From Amphiscolops sp. MND2022 (Eukaryota), in contig OZ076409.1 in assembly GCA_964187785.1 (NCBI GenBank), forward strand, positions 48,424,001 through 48,488,000: DNA of 64,000 nt, given 5' to 3'. The notes under the pieces were generated by a model. It was not told the origin of the DNA. It did not search any database and saw only the letters and a list, made by a program, of their open reading frames with translations. Shown here piece after piece: positions 57,805 through 57,990 of this stretch. The number at the start of each line of letters is the position of its first letter. The stretch's first letter is position 1. A program made the position numbers and the translations under genes.

Positions 57805-57990
57805 CTTTGGTCACGTGACTATTCCATATTTGGAAATGTTTACGCCTCGTTTTCCATAAAAGGAAGACATTTCCTTTTAAGGTAATGTTTGTGCGCTGTC
57901 ATTCAAAATTTGTATGTCATCCTTCCTTTTTAGGTAATGATTGCATTTCCTTTTATGGAAATCACGTGACTATTCCTTTTAAGGTAACAA
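57805..57990. promoter_or_regulatory. Divergent promoter with six CArG boxes and two TCACGTGAC E-boxes
   Basis: CC(A/T)6GG at 57824, 57854, 57873, 57925, 57949 and 57975; E-boxes at 57811 and 57962. Confidence 0.7.

Follow-up and report, generated by a model that had tools for sequence, protein, structure and literature searches.

Why do six perfect CArG boxes, CC(A/T)6GG, stand within 161 bp (57824-57984, first to last base) of the window analysed here, that is, the whole 64-kb stretch of DNA, and which protein would read them? A sequence-only reading had listed the six boxes, each preceded by TT and followed by (A/T)A, together with two TCACGTGAC, and had favoured selection for a MADS-box site over simple tandem duplication. 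We found all six boxes where it had placed them. Each of them (6/6) fits the CC(A/T)6GG core and has both direct flanks, and the two copies of TCACGTGAC are at 57811 and 57962. The cluster occupies the gap that separates two divergent genes in an endogenous Maverick/Polinton of the adintovirus type, and it is not an enhancer of a host gene.

A CArG cluster between divergent genes of a Maverick/Polinton

The window contains 16 CC-W6-GG boxes (W, A or T) against 4.6-4.8 expected, and the computed chance rate of ~1 per 13-14 kb agrees with the earlier rough estimate of one per 10-15 kb. When the whole window was shuffled 300 times, the largest cluster was two boxes within 170 bp. In addition, no shuffle of the 296-bp gap out of 20,000 had more than two boxes (two were reached 3 times), against the six observed, which is the enrichment over shuffled sequence that had been proposed as a check; it should be noted that duplication makes the six boxes non-independent and inflates both the shuffle and the flank statistics. 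The control motifs GG-W6-CC, CC-W4/5/7/8-GG, CG-W6-CG and GC-W6-GC showed no clustering. The start-to-start spacings of the six boxes are 30, 19, 52, 24 and 26. Furthermore, 13 of the 16 boxes lie within the 14.5-kb element, and nine of these fall in its two divergent gaps (6 + 3). One other box, CCATATTAGG at 50563-50572, which we take to be the c-fos SRE core, lies across the junction between the genes for the presumed capsid protein and the protease; it lacks TTN flanks and may be due to chance.

The gap also holds two CACGTGAC E-boxes (Table 1). The palindrome GTCACGTGAC is the CLEAR element, which is bound by TFEB/TFE3 (PMC7815692) and for which USF competes (PMC11436898). All 10 bp of this palindrome are present in E-box 1 and 9/10 in E-box 2; however, the context here is viral, and the sequence does not tell which bHLH-ZIP factor is concerned. 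Matches to CACGTGAC/GTCACGTG number 6 in the element versus 0 in the 49.5-kb flank. An extra GTCACGTGAC was seen at 56246-56255 (56239-56257), inside a 141-aa ORF and upstream of a 150-aa ORF.

Table 1. Coordinates of the element features, genes, boxes and candidate signals in the window
Feature	Positions	Strand	Remarks
Element left terminus AGTAGTAGT	49549..49557	+	(AGT)3 end; right end outside window
Adenain-like cysteine protease	50177..50626	-	Weak: PF00770 E 0.01, below curated cut-off
Presumed major capsid protein	50568..51911	-	4974 homologs; position beside protease
rve integrase	53094..54032	-	PF00665 E 6e-11, above cut-off
A32-type packaging ATPase	54528..55358	-	PF04665 E 4e-7, above cut-off
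Leftward gene, presumed single-stranded nucleic-acid-binding protein	57070..57741	-	ATG 57648, upstream TTG 57741
TTCATT, candidate initiator of leftward transcript	57760..57765	-	TTTCATTC block also in L001; putative role
E-box 1, full palindrome GTCACGTGAC (CLEAR/USF-type)	57810..57819	none	Exact match
CArG box 1 CCATATTTGG	57824..57833	none	6 bp from first CACGTG
CArG box 2 CCATAAAAGG	57854..57863	none	Box 5 in inverted copy
CArG box 3 CCTTTTAAGG	57873..57882	none	19 bp past box 2, spacing also in L001
CArG box 4 CCTTTTTAGG	57925..57934	none	
CArG box 5 CCTTTTATGG	57949..57958	none	Second CACGTG 4 bp beyond
E-box 2 ATCACGTGAC	57961..57970	none	9/10 match to GTCACGTGAC
CArG box 6 CCTTTTAAGG	57975..57984	none	6 bp from second CACGTG
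Block conserved with L001: TCTTTTCAG then ATTCATT	57996..58012	+	Candidate rightward initiator, or splice acceptor
Rightward gene, 199 aa, conserved	58038..58637	+	2213 homologs
Leftward gene of second gap	60710..61402	-	ATG 61336
Second divergent gap	61403..61944	none	CArG 61489, 61766, 61789; one-mismatch box 61817; CACGTG 61443, 61670
Large ORF with C2H2 zinc fingers, presumed N-terminal part of protein-primed DNA polymerase B	61945..63999	+	Runs off window

The gene set of the element fits that of adintoviruses (PMC8502044, section 3.1). With Maverick/Polinton elements and adintoviruses it shares the rve integrase and the packaging ATPase and, less firmly, the adenain-like protease, the presumed capsid and polymerase and the (AGT)n end (PMC8502044, PMC8097293), whereas here the gene blocks point away from two internal gaps. 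The end motif of Mavericks is given as (AGT)2 in PMC8097293. In this element, only the left (AGT)3 end at 49549 was found, and the right part lies beyond the window. Among 14 aligned homologs of the presumed capsid protein, two gave a weak Capsid_N match, and a comparison with the PDB gave no match; we presume 50568..51911 to be the capsid gene from gene order and from the usual make-up of such elements. The polymerase-like ORF gave zinc-finger matches only, for the part inside the window, and its identity (61945..63999) is likewise presumed on these grounds.

The leftward gene of the CArG gap heads a gene run that ends at the protease. Its predicted fold is a tandem PUR/Whirly/PC4-type (AlphaFold pLDDT 67.5; Foldseek PURA E 5e-5, prob 1.00), and from this model its product is presumed to bind single-stranded nucleic acid. 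The 199-aa protein of the rightward gene is basic (AlphaFold pLDDT 42); it had no Atlas match, and its stray Pfam matches each occurred in 1 of 18 members. The 208-aa leftward gene of the second gap did not match the PUR/PC4-fold alignment, and its Atlas matches were uninformative. One hhalign match was discarded, as it arose from members of the alignment whose reading continued into the following gene. Searches of PHROGs and NCBIfam added nothing.

The second divergent gap directly precedes the polymerase-like ORF. It contains three boxes, and none of 20,000 local shuffles reached three (0/20,000). Beside its E-box, a 22-nt inverted repeat (91% complementary, 49-nt loop) lies at 61381-61473.

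Several other features of the element and its surroundings were seen. At 58846-59273, where gene blocks converge, a 31-bp repeat (core TTTTACAACGTGTC) occurs roughly nine times, in two runs, and is adjoined by two small hydrophobic ORFs. The left terminal non-coding region (49549-50060) carries two GATTGGCT repeats near 49713 and 49762, presumably of CCAAT type, doublets of 18 bp and 19 bp, and, at 49947-50043, some five repeats of 20 bp with TTTATCCGCC; these left-terminal repeats may be parts of an origin or of a terminal repeat. In this copy, two ORFs (52290-53091) seem to make up the presumed minor capsid gene. The host flank is eukaryotic: a glucosidase II exon matched mammalian GANAB best, with 204 bits versus 186 for the next glucosidase entry, which has a different name, and TRAF/MATH and LINE-type RT pieces are also present. 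The flanking sequence suggests an animal-type host. In addition, a large inverted duplication occupies 1-10055, with near-identical arms (1031-1609 (+) and 8144-8857 (-); 2713-3039 (+) and 6710-7303 (-)). A TRAF/MATH-domain ORF (4268-5200) lies between the arms, and an ORF that looks like PC4 by eye is at 9672-10055; the duplication is possibly another mobile element.

Conservation of the boxes in a sister lineage

One homologous locus, L001, was found as DNA. It has the same divergent gene pair (53% amino acid identity) and belongs to a sister lineage whose proteins are 53-60% identical to those of the window element. Between the two genes of L001 there are three boxes against 0.06 expected, one of which is CCATATATGG; so, as in the window, the boxes lie between divergent genes. 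The gapped identity to the window is 0.51 for the cluster, 0.42 for the left leader, and 0.65 and 0.67 for the ORFs, values for which no null was run. Most sister copies have CACGTG, but at that place L001 reads CACTTG and so has no E-box. At L001:64-438 the rightward gene contains an internal stop, and two more stops were seen by eye in the leftward gene. L001 is a decayed copy in which three boxes are still visible.

Many database homologs carry N-terminal extensions, in which the gene caller read through the gap, and these extensions encode the promoter DNA. A search with one read-through extension gave 114 proteins, which together with three from the first search make 117 aligned rows; these rows are related copies selected by similarity to one read-through, and peptide compatibility in them is not proof of codons. 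The mapping from peptide to DNA is anchored by L001, whose DNA yields the leader of these peptides when translated. We found that the sister lineage has a 48-bp module, usually twice, in the order box, 9 bp, box, 6 bp, CACGTG. Out of the rows with residues at the respective position, those compatible with a perfect box in any frame were 17/29 for box a, 21/31 for b, 54/87 for c and 69/87 for d, and those compatible with an E-box were 36/51 for E-box 1 and 81/91 for E-box 2. For four control windows in the adjacent leader, the box-compatible rows were 2/113, 0/115, 0/116 and 0/116. In short, motif-compatible rows made up 59-89% at the four box and two E-box positions versus 0-2% in the controls.

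Compatible 4-mers gave the same picture: they made up 163/1831 of the module, 4/2932 of the leader next to it and 116/17814 of the coding cores, and shuffles averaged 12.4, with 21 at most. In 76 of 80 in-frame rows, the final codon of the proximal box d stands for W (51) or R (25), which are the only residues that (T/A)GG can encode. Among the 28 rows that span both modules, all four boxes are compatible in five, three in 10, two in 10, one in two and none in one. The comparison covers two lineages, with one sister locus as DNA.

The spacings are shared as well. The gap of 6 bp between box and CACGTG, seen at window boxes 1 and 6, is also 6 bp in the sister lineage, and the 19-bp spacing of window boxes 2-3 recurs at L001 511-530. 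The fixed CArG-E-box spacing is the least expected feature of the module. This spacing, the second cluster before the polymerase-like gene and the position in a divergent gap of a Maverick go beyond the sequence-only reading.

Close copies from the window's own lineage (at least 90% identity) mostly keep boxes 4-6, which is little informative at such identity. In contigs from four out of six sequencing runs, X1 and X2 hold ~90%-alike copies over most of the gap, X6 holds a 146-base exact piece, and the X4 contigs hold no gap copy; loose contig ends in X1 and X2 carry copies with a broken box. Scans of viral contigs found no relative with the PUR/PC4-fold gene, the capsid gene or the 199-aa gene, and two composite DNA patterns gave no match there. 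Alignments of the capsid protein diverged too far to seed a scan. The prokaryote genomes gave only one chance-level match (L080), without element genes or boxes.

The sequence-only reading had held that its explanation would fall if homologous regions in relatives did not retain CC-W6-GG. Judging from the DNA of L001 and the sister read-throughs, homologous regions in the two lineages compared appear to have kept the boxes while the spacers diverged.

Which protein would read the boxes

Of the half-flanks, 8/12 are TTN for the boxes of this gap, 4/6 for those of the second gap and 3/6 for those of L001. The comparison sets gave 2/8 (coding boxes), 0/6 (host boxes) and 15/124 (isolated control boxes). 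T stands at -2 in all 12 half-flanks of the six window boxes. According to the relevant part of PMC10178880, TTN...NAA are the prevalent flanks of plant MADS proteins and a similar 16-bp site holds for SRF, the reference data for these flanks being mainly from plant MADS proteins; SRF and MCM1 contact flanking thymines, and SRF-type proteins are near-universal in eukaryotes. The window boxes share with the SRF-type CArG box and its 16-bp extended MADS site (PMC10178880, in part) the core consensus, the six-base A/T centre and the TTN flanks, so they would fit the extended site. However, here six predicted sites stand within 161 bp, CACGTG lies at a fixed 6 bp, and the cores are mostly A-tracts. 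Selection for a MADS-type site is supported at the sequence level.

The sequence-only reading had also raised a protein of the element itself as the binder. This could be the 199-aa protein, the zinc fingers of the polymerase-like ORF or the product of a gene beyond the window, and the boxes would then serve autoregulation or be a replication or packaging signal that resembles CArG. We consider this unlikely. It is true that the motif is mostly confined to the element (13/16 boxes), that the 199-aa protein is conserved and basic, that the large ORF has C2H2 fingers and that the right part of the element outside the window could encode a binder. However, no MADS or HLH Pfam domain was found in 22 ORFs and 120 of 134 stop-to-stop frames of at least 45 aa in the window (of the other 14 frames, 12 were covered by the ORF scan and two edge frames were left out; the right end of the element is outside the window). 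Moreover, two distinct textbook host motifs are combined here, both of them in their extended forms, and a palindromic CC..GG with a free A/T core is a MADS read-out; C2H2 arrays usually read non-palindromic sites. A sigma-70 scan was at chance level.

Another host factor, for example of the NFAT/Rel type, might instead bind half-sites, which for this type are TTTCC/GGAAA. Several flanks do give TTTCC or TGGAAA, but the centre always has exactly six A/T, clusters of CC-W5-GG or CC-W7-GG are absent, and boxes flanked by TGA, CTA or TTA lack a half-site, yet keep CC-W6-GG. We therefore regard this reading as quite improbable.

Next, neutral local duplication in an A/T-rich spacer might have made the array. 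Local duplication did contribute to it, because cores are shared, with boxes 3 and 6 having the same sequence (CCTTTTAAGG), boxes 2 and 5 form a perfect 15-nt inverted copy, and the two units of E-box plus box are 81% alike across 26 nt. TRF at score 30 found no tandem array at the cluster. The claim that the cores vary holds in part: differing cores exist, but only four are distinct among the six boxes once strands are collapsed. Dense CC-W6-GG clusters also occur elsewhere. A three-box pattern scan of viral contigs gave 78 control loci, some on the same contig, and none of the 78 has element genes. One of them has 7 boxes and 3 cores. However, 61 of the 78 have a single core and five have three or more, and none of these five has CACGTG nearby (0/5). 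The closest look-alike among the controls, L052:767-1090, has 15 boxes near a contig end, seven of them within 170 bp, and three cores with TT/AA flanks, without element genes. Dense CC-W6-GG clusters can thus arise through tandem repetition, whereas irregular spacing, E-box pairing and cross-lineage retention set the window cluster apart.

Neutrality would fit the duplicated and inverted units in the window and the duplicated 48-bp module of the sister lineage, but motifs and two spacings outlast diverged spacers across lineages and recur in a second, unrelated gap, so that neutral duplication by itself is very unlikely. Duplication and selection are not alternatives for this array. They are compatible because the sister lineage carries a duplicated 48-bp module. 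The earlier preference for selection of a MADS site stands in that the boxes outlast their spacers in the sister lineage and the flanks fit MADS, and it does not stand in so far as duplication contributed too.

Finally, the repeats might be splice signals, namely a pyrimidine tract and AG|GT donors feeding the TCTTTTCAG acceptor before the rightward gene, and we give this only a very slight chance: three window boxes do end in AG|GTAA, as had been pointed out, and the acceptor-like block is kept in L001, with a G|GTAGGA donor at the nearest box and a GT..AG span of 40 nt, but the spans in the window are 21 nt for the nearest box and 71 and 123 nt for the others, a donor is missing from boxes 1, 2 and 5 and from two of the three boxes of L001, the overlap with a donor is absent from most boxes of L001 and the sister lineage, boxes occur in both orientations, and intact vertebrate Mavericks are intronless according to PMC8097293. 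A leader intron is possible, but it would leave the boxes unexplained because they occur in both orientations and some have no donor. Such a 5'-leader intron could coexist with a promoter.

A proposed promoter module built from host factor sites

The preferred reading, to which we give a probability of about 0.7 from the sequence, is that the gap would be a Pol II promoter module read by host SRF and a USF/MiT-TFE factor. The CArG region would be the upstream control of a two-way RNA polymerase II promoter in the endogenous Maverick/Polinton. The boxes are predicted to be bound by dimers of a host SRF-type MADS protein, and the CACGTGAC E-boxes, 6 bp away, would be bound by a host bHLH-ZIP factor of the USF/MiT-TFE type. 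The output would be the PUR/PC4-fold gene leftwards and the 199-aa gene rightwards. Transcription would probably begin at TTCATT initiators 20-65 bp outside the array.

TTCATT as an initiator is a lead. Sense-strand TTCATT lies within 130 nt of 9/18 element starts, in 13 copies against 3.0 expected and 3 antisense, a count for which the motif was chosen post hoc and one of the 18 starts was mis-set. It occurs at both edges of the array and is conserved there in L001; we take it to resemble invertebrate initiators. TTCATT also precedes the presumed capsid and core genes, and these lack a CArG cluster upstream.

The second divergent gap, before the presumed DNA polymerase, would be served by the same box type. 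Because of this shared box type in front of the presumed polymerase, the two gaps look like first-acting promoters, which would have to rely on host factors while no element protein has yet been made. The array would have grown by local duplication and been kept by selection on its motifs. Promoter function, start sites, the identity of the binder, cooperativity and early timing are what we infer here, and the module itself is real and conserved and would be a cis-regulatory one, a viral promoter built from host factor sites.

A further-reaching version is tentative and, on the sequence, rather doubtful: the CArG-N6-CACGTG composite may be a signal-gated switch in animal Mavericks, at which SRF and MiT/TFE or USF act cooperatively, so that first-acting genes would be tied to host actin/MRTF or MAPK signals and nutrient state, and the many copies of the family in its hosts would scatter ready-made SRF enhancers across the genome. 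If this is true, wounding, regeneration or starvation would be examples of host states coupled to the element.

Viral borrowing of SRF is already established as a principle by HTLV-1, which has an intragenic SRF/ELK-1 enhancer and an LTR SRF site (PMC9065021), and for avian retroviral LTRs PMC7601775 lists a CArG box. Those cases and the present one are alike in that an integrated animal virus has sites for the host's SRF, which drive or would drive transcription, in a short piece of non-coding or nucleosome-free DNA. In contrast to HTLV-1, the element here is a dsDNA Maverick, the boxes form an array in a divergent gap, and the partner is an E-box instead of an ETS site. In the titles and abstract openings of the literature on Maverick/Polinton/adintovirus promoters, CArG, SRF, transcription factor binding and CArG/E-box cooperation, no such element was described, and a term search of the available text of PMC8502044 and PMC8097293 found no description of internal promoters.

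Maverick virions have not been seen, according to PMC8097293. The module supports the view of Mavericks as autonomous Pol II viruses over that of helper-dependent elements. It would give the first cis-regulatory map for Mavericks and possibly a new SRF-bHLH composite element. For the question of how integrated Mavericks switch on in animals, a conserved, named pair of host-factor sites at the divergent gaps before the nucleic-acid-binding and polymerase-like genes may help to tell which host signal controls them.
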